This document shows positions 21,712-64,000 of a stretch of 64,000 nt of DNA, piece by piece. The DNA lies in contig MFRW01000001.1 of NCBI GenBank assembly GCA_001786575.1, forward strand, positions 22,179 to 86,178. Reading direction: 5' to 3'. Both the position numbers and the translations under genes were made by a program. The DNA comes from Candidatus Moranbacteria bacterium RIFCSPHIGHO2_01_FULL_55_24. GTDB lineage: Bacteria; Patescibacteriota; Minisyncoccia; Moranbacterales; UBA1568. Within the stretch, counting starts at the first letter, position 1. Each line of letters starts with the position of its first letter. Under the pieces are notes generated by a model. The model made no database searches. It had not been told where the DNA came from and saw nothing but the letters and a program-made list of their open reading frames with translations.

Positions 21712-21744
21712 ACCGCGCCCCTTTTCCGGCGCGGTTTTTCTTTT
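21712..21744 (+). terminator. Intrinsic terminator
   Basis: ACCGCGCC/GGCGCGGT stem with an 8-nt loop, followed by TTTTTCTTTT. Confidence 0.75.
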
Positions 21745-38371: not shown

Positions 38372-38581
38372 ACGCTTGACCGTTAGTCACTTTGCACATT
38401 TGTTGTACTCGTCCTTAGAAATAGCATTGGCACTAAGAACCTTATATAATACACCTTTTTTGTCTTTTTGTCAAGGGTAAGAAACCCCTTAATCAGAGGG
38501 AAGAAAAAACATGGAAGCTTTACGGAAGGAAGAGGTTTTGCTAGATTGGAGAGTCAAGTTCTTTGAAAGGGAGAAAGAGAG

Positions 38582-52835: not shown

Positions 52836-54236
52836 ATGTCGAAATTTAAAGATGGCCTCAAAGGCTTGGGAACGCTCCCAGCGCTTTTGATCGTCGTGGT
52901 GTCTTTCGGAGGATTTCTCGCAGCCGCGTCCATCGTGACGCACAACCAGCTGGCTTTGTCGCCGGTTTCTTTGGCGAAAGACGGCGAGGATGATGGCGGT
53001 GACAGCGAAGATAGCAAAGATAGCGAAGATGAAGACAAAGATGAAGATAAAGACGAGGACAAGGATGAAGATAAAGACGAAGATAAGTCTTTAGAGAAGG
53101 AAAGAGAAGCAGCCAAGAAGCAGGCCGAGCGTGAGCGCGAAGCCGCGAAGAAGAAGTCCAATAGCGGCCAAGGCGGCGATAACCTCTCTCTAGACGAGAA
53201 TGAAACGGAAGACGAGCTGGATGATGTAGAAGAAGACGAGCTGGATGATGAGCAACAGGCCGAAACAGAGAAGGCCATGTACAAGGATCGTACTAAGACT
53301 CTCGAGAAGCTGAACGAAGAGATCTACGAGGCCGAGAAGAAGATCATGGAAGCCAAGGCCGAAGGGGTCAATGTGAGCAAGGCGCTTGCAACTCTCGGAC
53401 TTGCCAAGGCGAAGATTGCCGAAGTAGAGCGAGCATTCAGCACATCCGACCTCGAAGCAGCGAAGCGTCTCGCCAAGGAAGTGAAGAAACTCGCGCATTT
53501 CGCGCGCAACGAGGATTTTCATGACGCCGAGAAACTTACCGAAGACCTTTCGAAGATCGCCAAGCGCATCTCGCAGGCTCGCGGCAAGATCGTGCTGTAT
53601 GAATCGCTTGGTGGTGACGGATCGGCATTTGCGAACTCGCTGAACAATCTTGAAGCGGAATTCAATGTCACCAAAGCGACTATCGCCGCGGGCGGAGACG
53701 GATCTCTTTCCGCTATTGATTCTCTGGATACCTTGGAGCGCAAGATAAAGTCCGTAAAGAGCAGCGTGGAGAACTCCATCTACGCTCTCGGCGGTACGGA
53801 TGAGGAATACGACGACGATTATAAGGACGAAACAGAGGACCTCATGGCAGAACTCGAAGATGTGGCGGAAATTGAGGGCGAGGACCTCGGCAAGCAGGTG
53901 CGCACTATCGCTCGTGCCCAGGGGATTTCGGCCAGCAAGGTAGGTGATACGGTAGAAAGTATCGATAACCGCAATGCTGCGCTTCAGTTCCTCTTCGGCA
54001 CCAAGAAGAGCGAGATCGAAAAATTGGAACAAGAAATTGCTGCCAACAAGGCGCGTGTCGATCTGCTCATCCAGGCTGCAGCCAAGGTCGAGGATCCAGA
54101 TGTGAAGCAGATCCTCCTAGACCAGGCAGAAGTTCTTAAGCAGGAGACCGCGAAGCTCGAAACCTTCGTTTCCGGTCAGAAGAACCGTTTGAGTCTCTTC
54201 GGCTGGCTCCTCAACCTGAACCCCGGCCAGAATTAA
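52836..54236 (+). CDS. Signal-anchored coiled-coil protein with (DEDK)n acidic repeat
   Basis: TM LLIVVVSFGGFLAAASIV, then DSEDSKDSEDEDKDEDKDEDKDEDKDEDK, then extended heptad-like Ala/Lys/Glu-rich coiled coil. Confidence 0.55.
   Translation: MSKFKDGLKGLGTLPALLIVVVSFGGFLAAASIVTHNQLALSPVSLAKDGEDDGGDSEDSKDSEDEDKDEDKDEDKDEDKDEDKSLEKEREAAKKQAEREREAAKKKSNSGQGGDNLSLDENETEDELDDVEEDELDDEQQAETEKAMYKDRTKTLEKLNEEIYEAEKKIMEAKAEGVNVSKALATLGLAKAKIAEVERAFSTSDLEAAKRLAKEVKKLAHFARNEDFHDAEKLTEDLSKIAKRISQARGKIVLYESLGGDGSAFANSLNNLEAEFNVTKATIAAGGDGSLSAIDSLDTLERKIKSVKSSVENSIYALGGTDEEYDDDYKDETEDLMAELEDVAEIEGEDLGKQVRTIARAQGISASKVGDTVESIDNRNAALQFLFGTKKSEIEKLEQEIAANKARVDLLIQAAAKVEDPDVKQILLDQAEVLKQETAKLETFVSGQKNRLSLFGWLLNLNPGQN
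53025..53087 (+). repeat. 12-nt tandem repeat (GAWGAYAARGAY) x about 5 encoding DEDK repeats
   Basis: gaagatgaagacaaagatgaagataaagacgaggacaaggatgaagataaagacgaagataag. Confidence 0.7.
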
Positions 54237-54262
54237 GCCAAAGACAGGAGAAAAGCTGAAAA

Positions 54263-54285
54263 AGAGGGAGAAATCCCTCTTTTTG
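54263..54285 (+). terminator. Intrinsic terminator
   Basis: AGAGGGA/TCCCTCT stem with a 4-nt loop, followed by TTTTT. Confidence 0.7.
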
Positions 54286-54323
54286 CTTGATTAAAGATCC
54301 ATTGAAATGTTTACGATATAATA

Positions 54324-54351
54324 TTGACAAATAGAGAAATTCGGGATATAT
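54324..54351 (+). promoter_or_regulatory. Consensus sigma70 promoter TTGACA-N17-TATATT driving the radical-SAM operon
   Basis: -35 at 54324-54329, -10 at 54346-54351, in an AT-rich spacer. Confidence 0.6.
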
Positions 54352-54356
54352 TCAGC

Positions 54357-54375
54357 TGTCAGAAACATTCTGACA
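54357..54375 (+). promoter_or_regulatory. Operator-like perfect palindrome TGTCAGAA-ACA-TTCTGACA at the predicted transcription start
   Basis: 8-3-8 inverted repeat starting 6 nt downstream of the -10 hexamer. Confidence 0.5.
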
Positions 54376-54417
54376 ACTTTTCTTTAACAAATTAGCCGAT
54401 AAAGAAGGGAAGTCAAA

Positions 54418-55500
54418 ATGTCTCATCAAGCTTTGTTCTGGAGGGTTGTGATGCAACCAACTTCCTTCTGTAATTTGAATTGTAGCTATTGCTATTTGAA
54501 GTACAGAAGAAGTAGCTATAAGATGAGTGTCACTGTGGCTCAAAGTGTGGCGCAGTCCGTCTTTCAAGCGGGTAATCCGGTAAGAATATTGTGGCATGGC
54601 GGTGAGCCATTGAGCTGTGGCAAGAAGCACTTCCAATCGCTACTTACGCCTTTCCAAGGCCTATGCGAAGCTCATATGGCCTCTCATTATATCCAGACAA
54701 ATGCAACTCTCATCAATGAAGAATGGTGCAGATTCTTCATTAACAATAATGTCCATGTGGGGGTAAGCATAGATGGGCCTGACTGGGCTAATAGAAATAG
54801 AACCGACTGGTCAGGAAGATCGTCGTTTAGCAGAATAATGGCTGGGGTATCATATTTAAAAGAATTTGATATACCATTTAGTGTTATCTGTGTTATCGAT
54901 GAATCAAGCTTGGAGAAGGCTGAAGAAATCTATACCTTCTTCTGCAATCTTGGATGTAGCGAGGTTGCATTTAATATCGAGGAGAAGCTTGGAATACATG
55001 AAACAAGTGCTCCGGATGATTCCAGACGTATAACAAACTTCTGGGCAGAACTGTTTAGATATTGGAAGGAAAGGCCGAATATCCCGATAAGGGAGGTGGA
55101 CAGGACTTTGCGTTGGATAGCAGCTCAAGAGGGTCCACAAGGAGATCCAGTAATAGAAGATTTCTTCCCTAGCGTTGCATATGATGGGAAGGTAGTATTG
55201 CTTTCCCCAGAGTTTCTCGATGTTTCCTGCAAGCTTTATTCTGATTTTTGTGCAGGAAATGTTTTGGATAGCACGTTAAATCAAATATGCGCCAAGGCAA
55301 AAAATCTTCAATACATTCAAGATTACTTGGAAGGTTTAAGAAAGTGCAAATCGGAATGCGAATATTTTGCATTCTGTAAGGGAGGCCAGGCAGCGAGTAA
55401 ATATTTTGAACATGGTACTACATGTGCCACGGAAACGGTATACTGCCGCAATTCAGAACAAAGGCTGCTTGAGGGAGTTCTTCAGTCAATAGAAGCTTGA
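54418..55500 (+). CDS. Radical SAM enzyme with C-terminal SPASM domain, anSME-family (peptide/protein-modifying maturase)
   Basis: N-terminal CNLNCSYCY (CxxxCxxC). Motifs ILWHGGEPL, IQTNATLINEEW and VGVSIDGP align with anaerobic sulfatase-maturating enzyme. C-terminal cluster CKSECEYFAFCKGGQ...C...C. No sulfatase gene in the window. Confidence 0.8.
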   Translation: MSHQALFWRVVMQPTSFCNLNCSYCYLKYRRSSYKMSVTVAQSVAQSVFQAGNPVRILWHGGEPLSCGKKHFQSLLTPFQGLCEAHMASHYIQTNATLINEEWCRFFINNNVHVGVSIDGPDWANRNRTDWSGRSSFSRIMAGVSYLKEFDIPFSVICVIDESSLEKAEEIYTFFCNLGCSEVAFNIEEKLGIHETSAPDDSRRITNFWAELFRYWKERPNIPIREVDRTLRWIAAQEGPQGDPVIEDFFPSVAYDGKVVLLSPEFLDVSCKLYSDFCAGNVLDSTLNQICAKAKNLQYIQDYLEGLRKCKSECEYFAFCKGGQAASKYFEHGTTCATETVYCRNSEQRLLEGVLQSIEA

Positions 55501-55530
55501 TGTTCTCTAATCGAAAGGAGGTGAGTTAGA

Positions 55531-55713
55531 GTGAGTGATTTGCAGAGCAGGTTGGTCAATAAAAGTTCTATGGCTACGGAAATCCTGGTTAAAACAGGAT
55601 ATGCCGAGGCCACAGAATTCTCTGCTGATGCCAATACTAGCCATGTAAAGGCTTTCAGCAAAGGCTGGGATAAGGGCTGGGGCAAGAGTGGCGGTCCTGG
55701 ACCGGATAGGTAA
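55531..55713 (+). CDS. Candidate RiPP precursor peptide (60 aa) with C-terminal KGWDKGWGKSGGPGPDR
   Basis: GTG start 10 nt after an AAGGAGG RBS, 30 nt downstream of the rSAM stop. Lys/Trp/Gly-rich C-terminus with a WGK motif. Followed by a strong hairpin. Confidence 0.45.
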   Translation: MSDLQSRLVNKSSMATEILVKTGYAEATEFSADANTSHVKAFSKGWDKGWGKSGGPGPDR

Positions 55714-55718
55714 AACTA

Positions 55719-55757
55719 GAGGGCTGGAGCTATAATATAGCTACAGCCCTCATTTTA
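55719..55757 (+). terminator. Stem-loop (attenuator/terminator) immediately after the candidate precursor gene
   Basis: AGGGCTG...CAGCCCT outer stem enclosing palindromic AGCTATAATATAGCT, followed by TTTTAAT. Confidence 0.55.
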
Positions 55758-55765
55758 ATGTATTT

Positions 55766-56578
55766 ATGGATAAAACTATCATTTCAAGGCAATTAAAAAA
55801 TGCCTATAAAAGACTAAATCACAAGGAGTATAAATCACCCTATAAGTACAAGCTTAAAAAGGGAAAACAGATACTCTATTTTTTCGGTTCCCGACATTCT
55901 TATAATCCAAAGGATGTGCAATTTGTTGAACTTCGGGACTTTTGGGATGATTTTCAAAAGAACGTTTCTGGCCCATATGAAGTTCTTATAGAAGGAGGCA
56001 AGAGGAGTAATAAATTTAAGGATGAAATTGAAGCAATAAAAAAGGAAGGAGAATTAGGCTTAGTGTATTTTTTAGGAAAAAAGGCTGGCGTAAAAATTGA
56101 TTCTCCCGATCTTTCTGATAGAGATTGGTTCAATGGTCTAGCGAAGATATTTAATAGGGACTTCGTAGCTTATTATGATTTTATTCGGGTTGCTTATCAG
56201 TGGAACAGGACTGACAAAAGCATATCTTTTAAAAAATATGCAAGCAGTTTCCTTAAGCAGAATGAGAAAAGTGTTCATTGGAAGGATTTTGATTTTTCTT
56301 TAAAAAATATGCAGCGTATTCATAAGGAGCTCTTTAAGACGCCTTTTGATGAGAACGATCAAAATTTCCTTGTATCTTTGCTTGATGTAAATTCGGATAA
56401 GTCGGTTATTAATGAAATTTCACGTTACGATGACGAGGGATTTCGCGATTTGAAAATTATCGACAATATCTCCAAAGAATGGAGCAAGAAATTAAGCCTT
56501 TTTATAATTTTTGGTGCCCCGCATGCCATTGTTATGAGAGACATTTTAAAGAAGATAGTTGGAGGAGGCGCTAAATAA
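55766..56578 (+). CDS. Hypothetical protein, very low GC (about one-third by eye), Lys/Phe/Asp-rich
   Basis: 270 aa. No recognisable domain. Composition unlike the rest of the chromosome. Confidence 0.45.
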   Translation: MDKTIISRQLKNAYKRLNHKEYKSPYKYKLKKGKQILYFFGSRHSYNPKDVQFVELRDFWDDFQKNVSGPYEVLIEGGKRSNKFKDEIEAIKKEGELGLVYFLGKKAGVKIDSPDLSDRDWFNGLAKIFNRDFVAYYDFIRVAYQWNRTDKSISFKKYASSFLKQNEKSVHWKDFDFSLKNMQRIHKELFKTPFDENDQNFLVSLLDVNSDKSVINEISRYDDEGFRDLKIIDNISKEWSKKLSLFIIFGAPHAIVMRDILKKIVGGGAK

Positions 56579-56624
56579 GCCTTTCTGGCTTGTGTTTATT
56601 TGGTGGTAGAATAAGGTCAACACT

Positions 56625-57377
56625 ATGTCCCAGTACTACAATCCTCGGAGGACGCGCAATATCTTCGATCCGGCGAGCACGGAGCCCTTCCGCTTGAGCC
56701 GCAGCCGCTTGGAGCTCTTCATGAGCTGTCCGCGCTGCTTCTACCTGGACCGGCGCCTGGGTATAGACCGTCCTCCAGGATACCCGTTTTCCTTAAACTC
56801 GGCCGTGGACACGCTCCTTAAGAAGGAATTCGATATCCACCGCGCGGCAGGCACGAGCCACCCGCTCATGGATACCTATGGCGTTGATGCGGTGCCGTTC
56901 CAGCATGAGAAGATGGAAGAATGGCGCGACTCGCTCCGCCGCGGAATAACCTTCTATCATGAGGAGAGCGGATTCTTCTTCACCGGAGGCGTCGATGACG
57001 TCTGGGTGGATCCGGACGGTGAACTGATTATCGTCGACTACAAGGCGACCGCCAAAGACGGTGAAGTGACGCTTGATGCCGAGTGGCAGGGCGGGTACAA
57101 GCGCCAGATGGAGATGTATCAGTGGCTCTTCCGCCAGAATGGCTTCCAGGTATCGGACACCGGCTACTTCGTCTATTGTAACGGCCAGACGGACCGCAAG
57201 GCTTTCGATGGCAAACTGGAATTCACCGTGAAGCTCATTCCGTACTCCGGAAGCGATGCCTGGGTTTCCGATACCCTTATGGCGGCGCGCGAATGCTTGG
57301 AACAGTCCGAAATCCCGCAGGCTCACCCCGACTGCGACTACTGCGCCTATCGCAAAGAAACCGCAAAGGTGGAATAG
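56625..57377 (+). CDS. PD-(D/E)XK nuclease with CxxC...CxxC cluster (Cas4/RecB-nuclease-domain-like), stand-alone
   Basis: N-terminal CPRCFYLD. Motif GVDDVWVDPDGELIIVDYKAT (D...D-x-K). C-terminal CDYCAY. No cas genes or repeats nearby. Confidence 0.55.
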   Translation: MSQYYNPRRTRNIFDPASTEPFRLSRSRLELFMSCPRCFYLDRRLGIDRPPGYPFSLNSAVDTLLKKEFDIHRAAGTSHPLMDTYGVDAVPFQHEKMEEWRDSLRRGITFYHEESGFFFTGGVDDVWVDPDGELIIVDYKATAKDGEVTLDAEWQGGYKRQMEMYQWLFRQNGFQVSDTGYFVYCNGQTDRKAFDGKLEFTVKLIPYSGSDAWVSDTLMAARECLEQSEIPQAHPDCDYCAYRKETAKVE

Positions 57378-60192: not shown

Positions 60193-60220
60193 CCCTGGAA
60201 TGAATCCAGAGGTTTTTAGT
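60193..60220 (+). terminator. Intrinsic terminator
   Basis: CCTGGA/TCCAGAGG stem followed by TTTTTAG. Confidence 0.55.
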
Positions 60221-60221
60221 C

Positions 60222-60249
60222 TTGACAAAATAATTCTTTATTATATTAT
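60222..60249 (+). promoter_or_regulatory. Sigma70 promoter TTGACA-N16-TATTAT
   Basis: About 40 nt upstream of the ATG at 60289. Confidence 0.55.
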
Positions 60250-60288
60250 AAAAGCGCAATATCATTTGCTTTAGAGGAGTATTTTGAG

Positions 60289-60876
60289 ATGCAGGTTCTT
60301 TTGCGTACCTCCCCCAACTGTGCAGCACCTCGCTGTAGTGATTGTAGCGGCCCAAGCAGCTGTGCCGCGGGAAAATGTTCCTCCGACTTTAAGTCGAGGG
60401 AAGAAAGTTCTGGTATTGTGGTTGCCAGATTCATCGATTCGTTTGATCTCGGTTTCTTGAGGCCGAAGCTCAAGGATTCTGAAATGGGTCCCGGTTGGAA
60501 TGATGAGGAAATCGAAAGAGCCATTCGTCGTTTCAAGCGGTTCTTTTATATGACAGGAACCCAGACAATTCCTGGTGGTCCCGGCTTCGTTCCCACCAAG
60601 GAAATCGACTGGGTCTGGCACATGTTTCTGCTCTATACCAAACGGTACGCCGAGACATGTTTCAATCTTTTCGGCCGGATGATTCACCATGCTCCTGATG
60701 AAGATGCGAGCATGGAGAGCAAAAACCAGCTTAGGAAAGGTTTCTCTGCGACAGCCGAACTTTACCAACGGCTCTTCGGAGAAAATTATGGAGAAGTGCG
60801 CGCGGAATGCGGCGCCTGCTGTGATGGTTCTGGCGGATGCCACAGCTGTCAACATATTGCCGTCGAGCAGCAATAG
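60289..60876 (+). CDS. DUF1399/glycine-rich-domain-protein (GRDP)-like protein with Cys-rich N- and C-termini
   Basis: Core EIDWVWHMFLLYTKRYAETCFNLFGRMIHHAPDED resembles the WHxHxLxPxxYxxDC motif of DUF1399. N-terminus CAAPRCSDCSGPSSCAAGKC; C-terminus CGACCDGSGGCHSCQH. Confidence 0.45.
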   Translation: MQVLLRTSPNCAAPRCSDCSGPSSCAAGKCSSDFKSREESSGIVVARFIDSFDLGFLRPKLKDSEMGPGWNDEEIERAIRRFKRFFYMTGTQTIPGGPGFVPTKEIDWVWHMFLLYTKRYAETCFNLFGRMIHHAPDEDASMESKNQLRKGFSATAELYQRLFGENYGEVRAECGACCDGSGGCHSCQHIAVEQQ

Positions 60877-60916
60877 AAAAACAGAATAACTTAAGGGAGT
60901 CCGCAGCGCGGACTCC

Positions 60917-61498
60917 CTATTTCTTTTTCTTGACTAAAAAATTAAAAAAATGCCAGTGTTTGGTGGTTCCGACGGCGGTGGAACCATCTTTTTCAATTTC
61001 TTCGAATTTGATCACTTCATAGCTGCCTAAGAGATCTTCCGTCTCTTGTTTTGTAAAGAAAGTCATCTTGGTTTCGGGGGTATTCCATTCATCCCGGTCT
61101 CCAAAAAGCTGGCCGCAGAATATAGCGCCAGGCTTGAGAGATTCTCTGATTCCTTTCCAGACTTTGGGGAAGTCCTCCTTTCTTAGGAAAGGGAGCGTAA
61201 ATTGTGAACTGACTAGATCGAAATGTTCCGTAGGGAAGTCATAGCTTTCGGTGCCACCGAATCTATAGCTGAAACGAGGATCTTTGATCTGCTCTGCTAA
61301 AGCTGGGAATTCCTTGGCGGAATCTATAGCGACTACCTCCTGGAATCCTTCCGCCAAGAGCCGCTTGACATCATTCAGAGTTCCAGCTCCTATATCGAGA
61401 GCAGAGCCTTTTTCGGATATGAAATTCAAACTTTCCACCAAAAGGGGTCGAGCAGGTGTCTGGTGAGTTTTTCGATAGTATGCTGACCAGTCAGGCAT
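60917..61498 (-). CDS. Class I SAM-dependent methyltransferase (small, TehB/UbiE-like)
   Basis: Motif I SALDIGAGTLNDVKRL; acidic post-I residue AID. Confidence 0.7.
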   Translation of the reverse strand: MPDWSAYYRKTHQTPARPLLVESLNFISEKGSALDIGAGTLNDVKRLLAEGFQEVVAIDSAKEFPALAEQIKDPRFSYRFGGTESYDFPTEHFDLVSSQFTLPFLRKEDFPKVWKGIRESLKPGAIFCGQLFGDRDEWNTPETKMTFFTKQETEDLLGSYEVIKFEEIEKDGSTAVGTTKHWHFFNFLVKKKK

Positions 61499-61693
61499 AG
61501 ATTTCTGATAATTTTATCTAAATCATACCCCAGTCTTTATTATATTGGAAATCTATCAGAAAACACCATTTATGTGACCCATTTTAAATTTTAAATAAGA
61601 CTATAAGAGCCCAAGAGCAATCCAGGGCTTTGTTTTTTTGAGGGAGGTGCTAAAATCGGGGTAGCTGTTTCTAACTGAAATAACAGGAAAAAT

Positions 61694-62095
61694 ATGCTTA
61701 ATTTGAAAATCCAGACCGTGCCCGATGATCAGCAGCGCTACAATACCGTAGGCGACTACTACCTGAATGACAAAGGGGAACGCATCTTTGTGATTTCGGA
61801 TATGCGAGACTGGCGCTACGAGATTCTGACAGCCGTCCACGAGCTGGTGGAGAGCGCGCTCTGCAAGCATCGGGGCGTCACAGATGAACAGATAGACGCC
61901 TTTGATCTCGAGTTTAGCGAGAAAAGAGCTACAGGAGACGTGAGCGAGCCGGGGGATTCTCCGGAAGCCCCATACTACAGGGAACACCAATTCTCCAATA
62001 AGATAGAGAAGATGCTGGCGGATGAGCTGAAAGTGGATTGGGAACAGTACGGGAAAACAGTGGATACGCTCATGAGAAATACCGAAGTCATCTGA
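61694..62095 (+). CDS. Hypothetical protein
   Basis: 133 aa. No domain recognised. Confidence 0.4.
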   Translation: MLNLKIQTVPDDQQRYNTVGDYYLNDKGERIFVISDMRDWRYEILTAVHELVESALCKHRGVTDEQIDAFDLEFSEKRATGDVSEPGDSPEAPYYREHQFSNKIEKMLADELKVDWEQYGKTVDTLMRNTEVI

Positions 62096-62278
62096 AAAGC
62101 CTAGCATTTAAAGGAGTTGTAGATTGCCGAGCCCTCTTGACATAATTTAATTTATAGATATAATATAATCACTTTGCTAAGCTTTCTCAAAGGGGGAATG
62201 GATGAAAATTCATTCCCCTTTCATTTTTTTACTTTTTCTTTGTTCCATAATTCTATCCATTTTATTAACTTTAAAAAA

Positions 62279-62893
62279 ATGCGCTTCTACAAAAATCTTT
62301 CAGATGATTTACATTGCTTCCAGGCTTCTTTAAAGATGGTGCTTTCAATCTATTTCCCTTCAGAGGAATTCTCATTCAAACAAATAGATAAGGCTACCGG
62401 TTTTAAGAAAGATAAGGGGACCTGGGATGCCAGGGGCTTTCTCTGGCTTGCCAAGAAAGGTTTCCGGATAATCCGTATTTCGGATTTTGATTATAAGAGA
62501 TTCGCGGATGAGGGTGAAAAGTACCTAAAATGGTTCTGGATGCCAGAAGTGTACGAATACCAAAAAAAGTATTCGGACTTTAAAAATGCTCAGAGGGCAG
62601 TTAAGGGTCTTTTGGATTATGCGAATTTTATTTTTCGGCGGCCTCTCCTTTCGGATATAGATAAATATGCGAGGAAAGAAGGTTCTACAATGATGGCTTC
62701 TGTGAATCCGAAGGTCCTTGATCACAAAGGGGGCTATGGAAACCATGTGGTAGTTATCGAGTCTATCTCAAAGAAGTATGTCGTTTTTAGTGACCCCGGC
62801 TTGCCTCCCGAGCCTCATCGGAAGGTTACGAGGAGCCTTTTTAAGAAAGCCTTATTTGAGCTTATAGTGATTACTCCTGCTAGTTTTAAATAG
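62279..62893 (+). CDS. C39-like / papain-fold cysteine peptidase domain protein (Peptidase_C39_2 / BtrH-N-like)
   Basis: Cys motif DLHCFQASLKMVLSIY and His motif GNHVVVIESISKKYVVFSDP. Low GC. ATG at 62279 within ORF 62174..62893. Confidence 0.5.
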   Translation: MRFYKNLSDDLHCFQASLKMVLSIYFPSEEFSFKQIDKATGFKKDKGTWDARGFLWLAKKGFRIIRISDFDYKRFADEGEKYLKWFWMPEVYEYQKKYSDFKNAQRAVKGLLDYANFIFRRPLLSDIDKYARKEGSTMMASVNPKVLDHKGGYGNHVVVIESISKKYVVFSDPGLPPEPHRKVTRSLFKKALFELIVITPASFK

Positions 62894-62995
62894 AGAAAAT
62901 AGGAATGTTAGATTATTTGAAAGCCCTGACTTGTCCCAGGGCTTTGATTTTTGCTTGGAAATGGTAGAATTGAATTATCTATTTGAACTTTATTT

Positions 62996-63835
62996 ATGCA
63001 TGAGACGAAAGAATACTGGTCAATGACAGAAGGAGTTTTTAATTGTTTGTTTGATAAAGAAAGAACGGAAGCATTTGCCAAGGCAATTCAGAATACTGTA
63101 AAAGAAGGGGATGTCGTTGTAGATATGGGAACGGGGAGCGGTATCTTGGCTATGCTTGCTGCCCAGGCAGGAGCAAAGAAGGTGTACGCTATTGAGTTTG
63201 ATGAGAATAACTACAGGAATCTTGAGAAGGTATTCAAAGTAAATGGTTTCGATCAGATTGTTTTATTAAATGAAGATGTGCGTTCTGTTGAAATTCCTGA
63301 AAAAGTGGACGTCATTATTGGAGAAATGATTGCGACGGGACTTATTGAGGAACAGCAGATCCAGGCTATGAATAACATCCTAAAATATACAAATCTGGGA
63401 TGTAAGACACTTCTAAAGAAGTACACTAATTATATAGACTGTGTTTATAACAAAGATCAGTATTACGGGCTACAGTTTCCCATTGTAAGGTATGAGTATT
63501 CAGGCGAGTCAGAATTAGAGTCCTGGCCGCTTACCGGCAAAGAGTCGTATTCAGTGACTGATTTTTCTAAGATTACCTCTGAAGAAGAACGGGTTGTTGA
63601 TAAAACCTTGAATCTTGTTGCGATAAAGGATGGTAAAATAAACGGGATAAGAATCAGTAGCGAAACAGAGTTTTCTGACGGTACAAAATTCTGGGGATCT
63701 TTTGCCTATAGTTACCCTATTATTCTTCCTGTCGAGGATGTTGAAGTTAAGGAAGGAGATAGGATTCAAGTGAAAATAAGCTACGTTTTATGCGGGGGAT
63801 TCAATAATCTAAAGTATTCTCTAAATAAAGATTAA
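62996..63835 (+). CDS. Protein arginine N-methyltransferase (PRMT)-like SAM-dependent methyltransferase
   Basis: [30 protein letters not shown] matches PRMT motif I / post-I ([27 protein letters not shown]). Double-E-like region IIGEMI. C-terminal beta-barrel-length region. Low GC. Confidence 0.6.
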   Translation: [279 protein letters not shown]

Positions 63836-63837
63836 GT

Positions 63838-64000
63838 ATGTTTTGCGAAGCTTTTCCTGATATACAGTTCTTTATTTTTACGAAACATGTTCCGTCGCTG
63901 CTTTACTATTCACATATCCCGACCGCTCTTACAGCCTTACTGATCGGCTTCTTTATTTATGTTAAAAGTAATCGGAATCAACTTTCAAAAATACTCCTTT
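63838..64000 (+). CDS. Hypothetical membrane protein, 3' truncated by window edge
   Basis: ATG at 63838. Hydrophobic N-terminus (LTALLIGFFIYV). Open to the end of the window. Confidence 0.3.
   Translation, partial: MFCEAFPDIQFFIFTKHVPSLLYYSHIPTALTALLIGFFIYVKSNRNQLSKILL

Follow-up and report, generated by a model that had tools for sequence, protein, structure and literature searches.

A probable AmcB-type triceptide cassette in a low-GC island of a Candidatus Moranbacteria genome

The stretch of DNA analysed in this work is a segment of 64,000 nt from contig MFRW01000001.1 of Candidatus Moranbacteria bacterium RIFCSPHIGHO2_01_FULL_55_24, hereafter the window, and all coordinates are window positions. 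Three ORFs of the + strand are found between the gene for a 466-aa protein, which ends at 54236, and a PD-(D/E)XK nuclease gene, which starts at 56625. The first ORF (54418–55500) encodes a radical S-adenosylmethionine (SAM) enzyme of 360 aa; the second (55531–55713) encodes a peptide of 60 aa; and the third (55766–56578) encodes a cytoplasmic protein of 270 aa. The whole cassette is held in a low-GC island, delimited by the composition profile at 54285–56600 (no strand assigned), and its GC content is 39.1% against 54.8% in the rest of the window. We consider it likely that this block is a triceptide-type cassette for a ribosomally synthesised peptide with post-translational modifications (RiPP), horizontally acquired by this bacterium, which has a tiny genome and is a member of the Patescibacteria, or Candidate Phyla Radiation (CPR).

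A previous sequence-only reading had described an AT-rich block among genes of native GC, organised as a compact RiPP cassette with a maturase, a precursor and an accessory gene under its own promoter, and both descriptions are supported here. The same applies to the low-GC gene of 270 aa that it placed last, whose GC at third codon positions (GC3) is 0.33, and to the Patescibacteria-like host that it suspected, identified as Candidatus Moranbacteria by exact proteins in NCBI. This genome is metagenome-assembled, and the contig is a scaffold of 269 kb. The NCBI records OGI22493.1 (the radical-SAM enzyme) and OGI22494.1 are both labelled 'hypothetical protein'. Locus tags run consecutively over the 60-aa ORF and, since those of both neighbouring genes are consecutive, the peptide gene is unannotated there.

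The product of the first gene is predicted to be a radical-SAM maturase of the AmcB family, which forms cyclophanes in peptides (triceptide synthase, 3-CyFE). In NCBIfam, the enzyme scored 450.3 bits, above the cutoff of 425, with the curated equivalog model NF041718 (cyclophane-forming radical SAM peptide maturase AmcB), over residues 7–358 of 360. The second-best family, GrrM/OscB (TIGR04261), stayed at 285 bits, below its cutoff of 310. Next came the models for anaerobic sulfatase-maturating enzymes (anSME), all below cutoff (TIGR03942, 150.2 against 349.45 bits; NF010321, 100 against 441; NF010308, 100 against 484), and then DynA, YhhB, FxsB and DarW/DarE. The best 25 of the 60 NCBIfam matches belong to triceptide, daropeptide and anSME-branch families, and no model for a streptide- or WGK-type maturase is among these 25. 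Pfam identified a Radical_SAM domain (E = 3.7e-17) and a weak Fer4_12 in the enzyme, and no RRE/PqqD-like domain. The homology search retrieved 1678 homologs, and annotated AmcB proteins are 40–45% identical to the window enzyme. Among solved structures, those nearest in sequence are anSME (4K36-39; E = 5e-24) and ChlB, a triceptide synthase, through its radical-SAM domain (9GM3; E = 6.5e-19). Among annotated proteins of the plasmid collection, GrrM/OscB (30–33% identity) rank above anSME (about 26%). For the enzyme, several gene callers prefer M12 (54451) as the start, with a GGAGGG of its own; the 360-aa form is the one that agrees better with the lengths of the homologs.

The CxxxCxxC motif of the SAM cluster is located at C18, C22 and C25, as the sequence-only reading had stated for this 360-aa enzyme, and 117 of the 120 aligned homologs keep it, with gaps at these positions in the remaining three. 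C310, C314, C320 and C343 are conserved in 120 of 120 and are the only conserved cysteines of the C-terminal part (C310-x3-C314-x5-C320...C343), a set that would be enough for one auxiliary Fe-S cluster. These four residues align with the auxiliary-cluster-II motif of anSME and with C-x2-C-x5-C...TVYCR of ChlB, so that the 'TVYCR' motif and the C-terminal Cys pattern are common to the window enzyme and to a solved triceptide synthase. The positions of anSME auxiliary cluster I are not Cys in the window enzyme nor in its 119 homologs, and the SPASM model TIGR04085 gave 20.8 bits against a cutoff of 27. The Cys-rich SPASM C-terminus of the earlier description holds only in a reduced, single-cluster sense, because a single Cys set is conserved, the auxiliary-cluster-I cysteines are missing and the model stays below its cutoff. 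Four extra cysteines, C271, C278, C291 and C336, occur in the C-terminal third of the enzyme, each position being shared by at most two sequences among the 119 homologs. The idea that these restore a full SPASM was considered and rejected for lack of alignment with the ligands of anSME auxiliary cluster I.

The second gene has a GTG start and encodes a predicted precursor peptide, AmcA-like, in a frame that is conserved after the radical-SAM gene; its C-terminus is KGWDKGWGKSGGPGPDR. The ORF starts 30 nt downstream of the enzyme gene, and a Shine-Dalgarno sequence, AGGAGGTGA (55516–55524, + strand), can be read 6 nt ahead of the GTG. The 60-codon ORF, its strong ribosome-binding site and its C-terminus were all noticed in the sequence-only reading, and only the count of motif repeats has to be changed: instead of two, there are four periodic aromatic-X-Lys triplets, H38VK, F42SK, W46DK and W50GK, at residues 38–52 with a period of four residues. 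This core, HVK-A-FSK-G-WDK-G-WGK (55642–55686, + strand), contains the predicted cyclophane sites.

A small ORF directly 3′ of the radical-SAM gene, in the same orientation and frame, was found in at least ten other loci (L005, L007, L011, L012, L013, L095, L096, L174, L175 and L176), whose enzymes are 41–52% identical. Homologous pairs of peptide and radical-SAM genes, for which the sequence-only reading had suggested a search in related genomes, are in this way present, with the frame of the small ORF conserved. All these peptides end in repeated aromatic-X-(K/N/Q) triplets. The precursor C-termini are ...REAWNKGWNKDGH in L005, ...PKDWDKNWEKGWNKDGH in L007, ...GQFNQFNNGFNKVGKP in L011 (Liptonbacteria), ...VNWNKGWGKYGKT in L012/L094 (Zambryskibacteria), ...SWNKGWSKYGKT in L095, ...SWDNGWGNYGKT... 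in L013 (Chitinophagaceae), ...AWNKGWNLFNKPRGG in L096, ...NWDKGWDKGWDKGWGKTGK in L174, ...NWNRGWGKGWGKYGKT in L175 and ...FNNWDKSETWASWDKGADWGNVVKG in L176. Among the homologous precursors, W, F and H all occur as the aromatic residue of the triplet, and K, N, Q and R as its residue 3. Alignment A3, which includes the window peptide and nine of the loci (all but L176), revealed a conserved leader, M-x-T-L-K-E-R..K-K..L, a variable spacer and a core W-[ND]-K-G-W-[GN]-K-x-G-K, with W46, G49, W50 and G54 conserved in at least 90% of the sequences; in this alignment the window core lines up with the four WxK repeats of L174 position by position. A scan for enzyme residues that track Lys versus Asn/Gln at motif position 3 (compare D214 of HtkB) found two separating columns, and both follow phylogeny.

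In Actinomycetota, annotated AmcB genes are also followed by AmcA peptides (Pfam PF28164, AmcA_3a), for example ...CAWNHFENIPTFYNWNNRPR and ...WDNRPTWDNWAKNPAPFDNRPTWDNWNKKK, and some of these peptides carry WAK and WNK triplets. The window precursor has no family match in the Pfam-A copy searched, and no second precursor-like ORF occurs in any frame of the 64-kb window. Triceptides have three-residue cyclophanes as their defining feature, with a link from the aromatic residue to a C-beta on Omega1-X2-X3 motifs (PMC11499958, PMC11002830), and experiments have demonstrated cross-links in HTK, FTK and YSK triplets, with a change of -2 Da each (PMC11499958, PMC12912966). Judged by sequence, the repeated aromatic-X-X triplet common to all these precursors is exactly the published triceptide motif. 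The conservation described above supports the small ORF as a genuine precursor gene, and the sequence-level membership tests would place the cassette in the AmcB-family triceptide pathway.

Two other identities were considered for the enzyme and the peptide. The sequence-only reading had followed the logic of the streptide and WGK systems, in which a StrB- or WgkB-like SPASM enzyme would form a streptococcal-type Lys-Trp cross-link in a quorum-sensing peptide. WgkB makes a double Trp-Lys link on WGK and StrB joins Lys to Trp in K-x-x-x-W (PMC11851443); the window peptide has literal W-G-K and K-G-W, its partner is a radical-SAM protein with C-terminal cysteines, and joining Trp and Lys side chains would be common to these radical-SAM RiPPs. 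Such a system is nevertheless very improbable here. The best 25 of 60 NCBIfam matches are led by AmcB above its cutoff, without any streptide/WGK maturase, and StrB and WgkB are larger enzymes with an N-terminal recognition domain and a full SPASM, whereas the window enzyme has 360 aa, no RRE/PqqD-like domain and a single auxiliary-cluster Cys set. The clade and the predicted ring sizes and connectivities differ as well, and the flanks have neither the shp/rgg-type regulator nor the transporter of quorum-sensing loci. The homologous precursors vary the aromatic residue and residue 3 as triceptides do, and the triceptide aromatic-X-X triplet (PMC11499958) applies in place of the streptide/WGK motif (PMC11851443).

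The close likeness to anSME noted in the sequence-only reading leads to the other explanation, a true anSME that serves a sulfatase elsewhere in the genome, with the small ORF being incidental. Its basis is the closest solved structure by sequence (4K36-4K39) and significant partial model matches, with the radical-SAM core and the auxiliary-cluster-II Cys motif in common. We find this scarcely credible, since the enzyme stays at 150 bits against a cutoff of 349, passes the AmcB cutoff instead, and lacks the auxiliary-cluster-I ligands. The strict C/S-x-P-x-R sulfatase motif occurs in none of the six frames of the 64-kb window, in agreement with the earlier remark that no sulfatase lies nearby. 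An incidental ORF, moreover, would not keep its frame, leader and core over ten loci.

The cassette of a radical-SAM enzyme and a triceptide-type precursor can be compared with three described systems. It resembles AmcB/AmcA of Actinomycetota (NF041718/PF28164) in the enzyme score above cutoff, in the order of radical-SAM gene and then precursor, and in the several C-terminal aromatic-X-X triplets; it differs in the CPR host, in the leader, and in the (W-x-K-G)n core, against cores of the CAWNHFENIPTFYNWNNRPR or WDNRPTWDNW type. It also differs in the third gene, which is present in six CPR-type loci and in 0 of about 70 actinobacterial loci. OscB/GrrM, which act on Gly-rich-repeat triceptides (TIGR04261), are the second-best family and the best annotated plasmid match. 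Their precursors have Gly-containing repeats and Trp/Phe-X-Asn/Asp triplets, with links from Trp-C7 or Phe-C4 to C-beta (PMC11002830), whereas residue 3 is Lys here and the window enzyme falls below the cutoff of 310. DarE, the darobactin enzyme, is a radical-SAM enzyme of the same branch and makes a Trp-to-Lys C-C link in a three-residue W-x-K (PMC9055067). Unlike the daropeptide maturases, the window enzyme scores 87 bits against a cutoff of 650 and is smaller than DarE, and its peptide has no W-x-W ether motif.

The product of the third gene belongs to an unannotated family, has a Tiki/TraB/PrgY/EreA/ChaN-like fold and is a predicted hydrolase. A word-index homology search returned only its own fragment, and an exhaustive HMMER search returned 677 clusters at 50% identity, nearly all of about 260 aa; tblastn against plasmid and phage collections gave no match. 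All 49 sequences of an alignment have H44 (in a G-x-x-H), E76 and R227, and conservation reaches at least 90% at E96, G250 and H253 (in a second G-x-x-H). When these 49 relatives were compared with Pfam, 16 gave weak matches to TraB_PrgY_gumN (best E = 9.8e-5), four to DUF5694 and two to ChaN. The structure prediction is a confident model with the alpha/beta fold of the Tiki superfamily and a central parallel sheet, and the structures listed beside it are EreA-like 2rad and 2qgm, ChaN 2g5g, EreC 6xcq, HopBA1 5t09 and RRSP 5w6l. Active Tiki-fold enzymes hydrolyse peptide or ester bonds via a His-Glu pair in a 2His/2Glu motif (PMC6254334), and the conserved residues of the 270-aa protein appear to fit this pattern. 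PrgY/TraB are thought to degrade an endogenous peptide pheromone (PMC7117660). The 270-aa protein is distinct from the described members of the superfamily by having no membrane anchor or signal peptide, by a long helical insertion, and by forming its own unannotated family of about 260 aa.

Six loci have the third gene beside the radical-SAM and peptide genes, namely the window, L005, L007/8, L011, L096 and L176, and the third proteins of the other loci are 34–45% identical to that of the window. In L096 and L176 the gene is convergent to the other two, and the neighbourhoods of the six loci are otherwise unrelated. A functional link is suggested by this adjacency, since it persists despite unrelated neighbourhoods and an inverted orientation. 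Characterised triceptides are proteolytically matured ahead of the first cyclophane motif (PMC12912966). For this reason, and by analogy, we hold with moderate confidence that the 270-aa protein may be a maturation or self-protection peptidase. The Tiki/TraB superfamily is unmentioned in a review of RiPP leader proteases, and in the literature searched there is no report of a Tiki/TraB-like hydrolase as a partner in pathways of peptide natural products. Genes for Peptidase_S9 (prolyl-oligopeptidase type) were observed near the cassettes at L007/L008:1-1190 and at L011:6534-8324, in the latter directly after the Tiki-like gene, and none was found near the window cassette. For related cyclophane RiPPs, processing by S9 proteases has been described (PMC12957482).

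The intergenic regions of the cassette contain several elements. A sigma-70-type promoter, TTGACA-17-TATATT (54324–54352, + strand), matches the consensus at 11 of 12 positions, and just downstream of its -10 box is a perfect 8-3-8 palindrome, TGTCAGAA-ACA-TTCTGACA (54357–54375, + strand), of which the window has one copy. When the 181-nt intergenic region was shuffled 20,000 times, a promoter of at least 11/12 matches had p = 0.005 and a perfect inverted repeat with 8-nt arms had p = 0.01. The palindrome may serve as an operator for a protein or form a hairpin at the 5′ end of the mRNA. A second, weakly supported hairpin of the 5′ untranslated region is predicted at 54377–54409 (+ strand), where it pairs the Shine-Dalgarno-like AAGAAGGG of the start codon at 54418 and is also a 25-nt imperfect inverted repeat; the RNA of 54353–54420 folds at -15.5 kcal/mol (z = -2.7). 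At the left edge of the island, a symmetric hairpin with an 11-bp stem and A/T runs on both sides (54259–54284, no strand assigned) is probably the terminator of the upstream 466-aa gene. The terminator, the promoter and the palindrome of the sequence-only reading are thus all present, and only the role of the palindrome as an operator was not upheld by the related loci.

After the precursor gene, a stem-loop with 16-nt arms followed by AUUUUAAU (55719–55751, + strand) lies 15 nt ahead of the ATG of the third gene and folds at -23.1 kcal/mol (z = -5.2). Hairpins of unrelated sequence are found at this position in other loci as well: the one of L005 folds at -25 kcal/mol and has a U-run, that of L007 folds at -27.2 kcal/mol, and that of L011 is weak. 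The stem-loop can be a partial terminator, with less read-through into the third gene, or a stabiliser of the 3′ end of the enzyme-precursor mRNA. The strong stem-loop was correctly recognised in the sequence-only reading, but, with the enzyme gene placed upstream of the peptide gene, it cannot raise the precursor-to-enzyme transcript ratio as proposed there. An Rfam scan of the cassette gave no credible RNA family. Other sigma-70 promoters with 11–12 of 12 matches were observed just upstream of many genes of the window, at 21743, 50905, 57422, 58801 and 62137 on the + strand and at 38474 and 4442 on the - strand; since such matches precede many of its genes, this genome evidently uses near-consensus sigma-70 promoters.

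From these elements and the chemistry of the enzyme family, a mechanism can be proposed. The promoter at 54324 is placed to drive the radical-SAM gene and then the precursor gene, and the enzyme would bind the leader without an RRE domain. SAM would be reductively cleaved, and the 5′-deoxyadenosyl radical would take a hydrogen from the C-beta of the Lys at position 3 of the triplet; the resulting Lys C-beta radical would add to the aromatic ring at position 1. Re-aromatisation would pass an electron to the single conserved auxiliary Fe-S cluster, giving a strained three-residue cyclophane. With each ring the mass would change by -2 Da, and the expected number of rings is two to four. The hairpin after the precursor gene would limit transcription of the third gene or protect the enzyme-precursor message. 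The predicted Tiki/TraB-fold hydrolase, with its apparently intact His-Glu/His set, would cleave the modified peptide, most likely for removal of the leader or trimming of the tail; alternatively, it might destroy intracellular product for self-protection, as PrgY does for pheromone. A wider proposal, which we regard as tentative, is that the cassette-linked Tiki/TraB proteins of about 260 aa are unrecognised RiPP-dedicated hydrolases for triceptides, acting as leader/tail or PrgY-like self-protection peptidases, and that the cassette gives ultra-small CPR bacteria a mobile, cationic Trp-cyclophane peptide for interactions with hosts or competitors.

Several observations weigh against the reading of the block as a triceptide cassette with a dedicated hydrolase. 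No transporter, regulator or immunity gene is found inside the island, and the palindrome was looked for upstream of the related cassettes and is not conserved there. The positions of the cross-links, the number of rings and the use of the His and Phe triplets are all taken by analogy. The 270-aa protein reached no Pfam threshold (best, DUF5694, 17.9 bits against a cutoff of 27.5), and Foldseek gave no significant PDB match for it. Esterases (EreA-C) and a haem binder (ChaN) have the Tiki fold too, and peptidase activity of the 270-aa protein is therefore not assured. Nor is the third gene obligatory: L012/L094, L095 and L013 are without it; L174 and L175 carry an unrelated protein of about 180 aa in its place; L177 has a family member without an adjacent radical-SAM gene, between a divergent gene upstream and an acetyltransferase downstream; and in L092 and L093 the family members have no radical-SAM gene visible, on contigs of only about 1.2 kb. 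The two proteins of about 180 aa (L174:3594-4136 and L175:4390-4953) are 38% identical to each other, belong to no Pfam family, and may serve the same class of peptides as an alternative accessory enzyme.

With these exceptions in mind, the radical-SAM and peptide genes could form a two-gene triceptide module, the 270-aa gene being a mere frequent neighbour with a housekeeping or esterase role. Five close cassettes do without the gene, at least one member of its 677-cluster family has no radical-SAM gene beside it and two more show none on their very short contigs, the actinobacterial AmcAB loci surveyed never carry it, and between it and the peptide gene there is a terminator-like hairpin. 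We judge this unlikely, since the adjacency is found in six loci with otherwise completely different surroundings, even with inversion in L096 and L176, and since in the window the gene shares the same foreign low-GC island and follows the hairpin so closely that there is no room for a promoter of its own.

The composition of the island also bears on its origin. GC3 values of the radical-SAM, 60-aa and 270-aa genes are 0.40, 0.49 and 0.33, respectively, and those of the neighbouring genes range from 0.62 to 0.75. In eight related genomes the GC content of the cassette equals that of the flanks, and the contrast of about 15 percentage points is seen only here. Because this contrast in GC and GC3 with the flanks exists in this genome only, it indicates that the island was acquired horizontally, fairly recently, from a donor of lower GC, which was probably another CPR bacterium. 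Direct repeats were searched at the flanks of the island as integration scars, and none was found.

The same cassette occurs in several CPR genomes, including Zambryskibacteria and Liptonbacteria, and the enzyme family is abundant in Actinomycetota; the arrangement is not unique, contrary to the sequence-only reading, for which it would be new in such a genome. Triceptides were recently defined as a RiPP class, which is growing and for which about 3,900 pathways are predicted and roughly ten enzymes have been characterised (PMC11499958), and graspetides are the only RiPPs discussed for CPR/Patescibacteria in the literature searched (PMC8939145). The locus carries a curated actinobacterial enzyme family into CPR/Patescibacteria, and it predicts a compact substrate in which His, Phe and Trp are the aromatic residues of four consecutive aromatic-X-Lys sites. 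Its less ordinary aspects are the CPR host, the combination of His, Phe and Trp in the (aromatic-X-Lys)4 core, and the conserved partner of Tiki/TraB fold. The practical gain is a corrected annotation, since the peptide gene is absent from public annotation and both proteins are labelled hypothetical, and a target for heterologous expression, rather than a new type of system.

The genes flanking the island encode glycosyltransferases, an acidic coiled-coil protein, the PD-(D/E)XK nuclease and purD. In the upstream 466-aa protein (52836–54236), a membrane helix at the N-terminus is accompanied by an acidic repeat (E/D-K) and by a long coiled-coil region; the protein has no family match, and its exact sequence is absent from the protein collection searched. 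The downstream nuclease gene (56625–57377) is of native GC, its match to a Cas4-like family is weak (30 bits; cutoff, 65), and no CRISPR context is present in the region examined around it. At the end of the window, a second low-GC stretch (60200–64000, 35–48% GC), which includes a gene for a PrmA/TRM5-like methyltransferase (62996–63835), may be another foreign segment.

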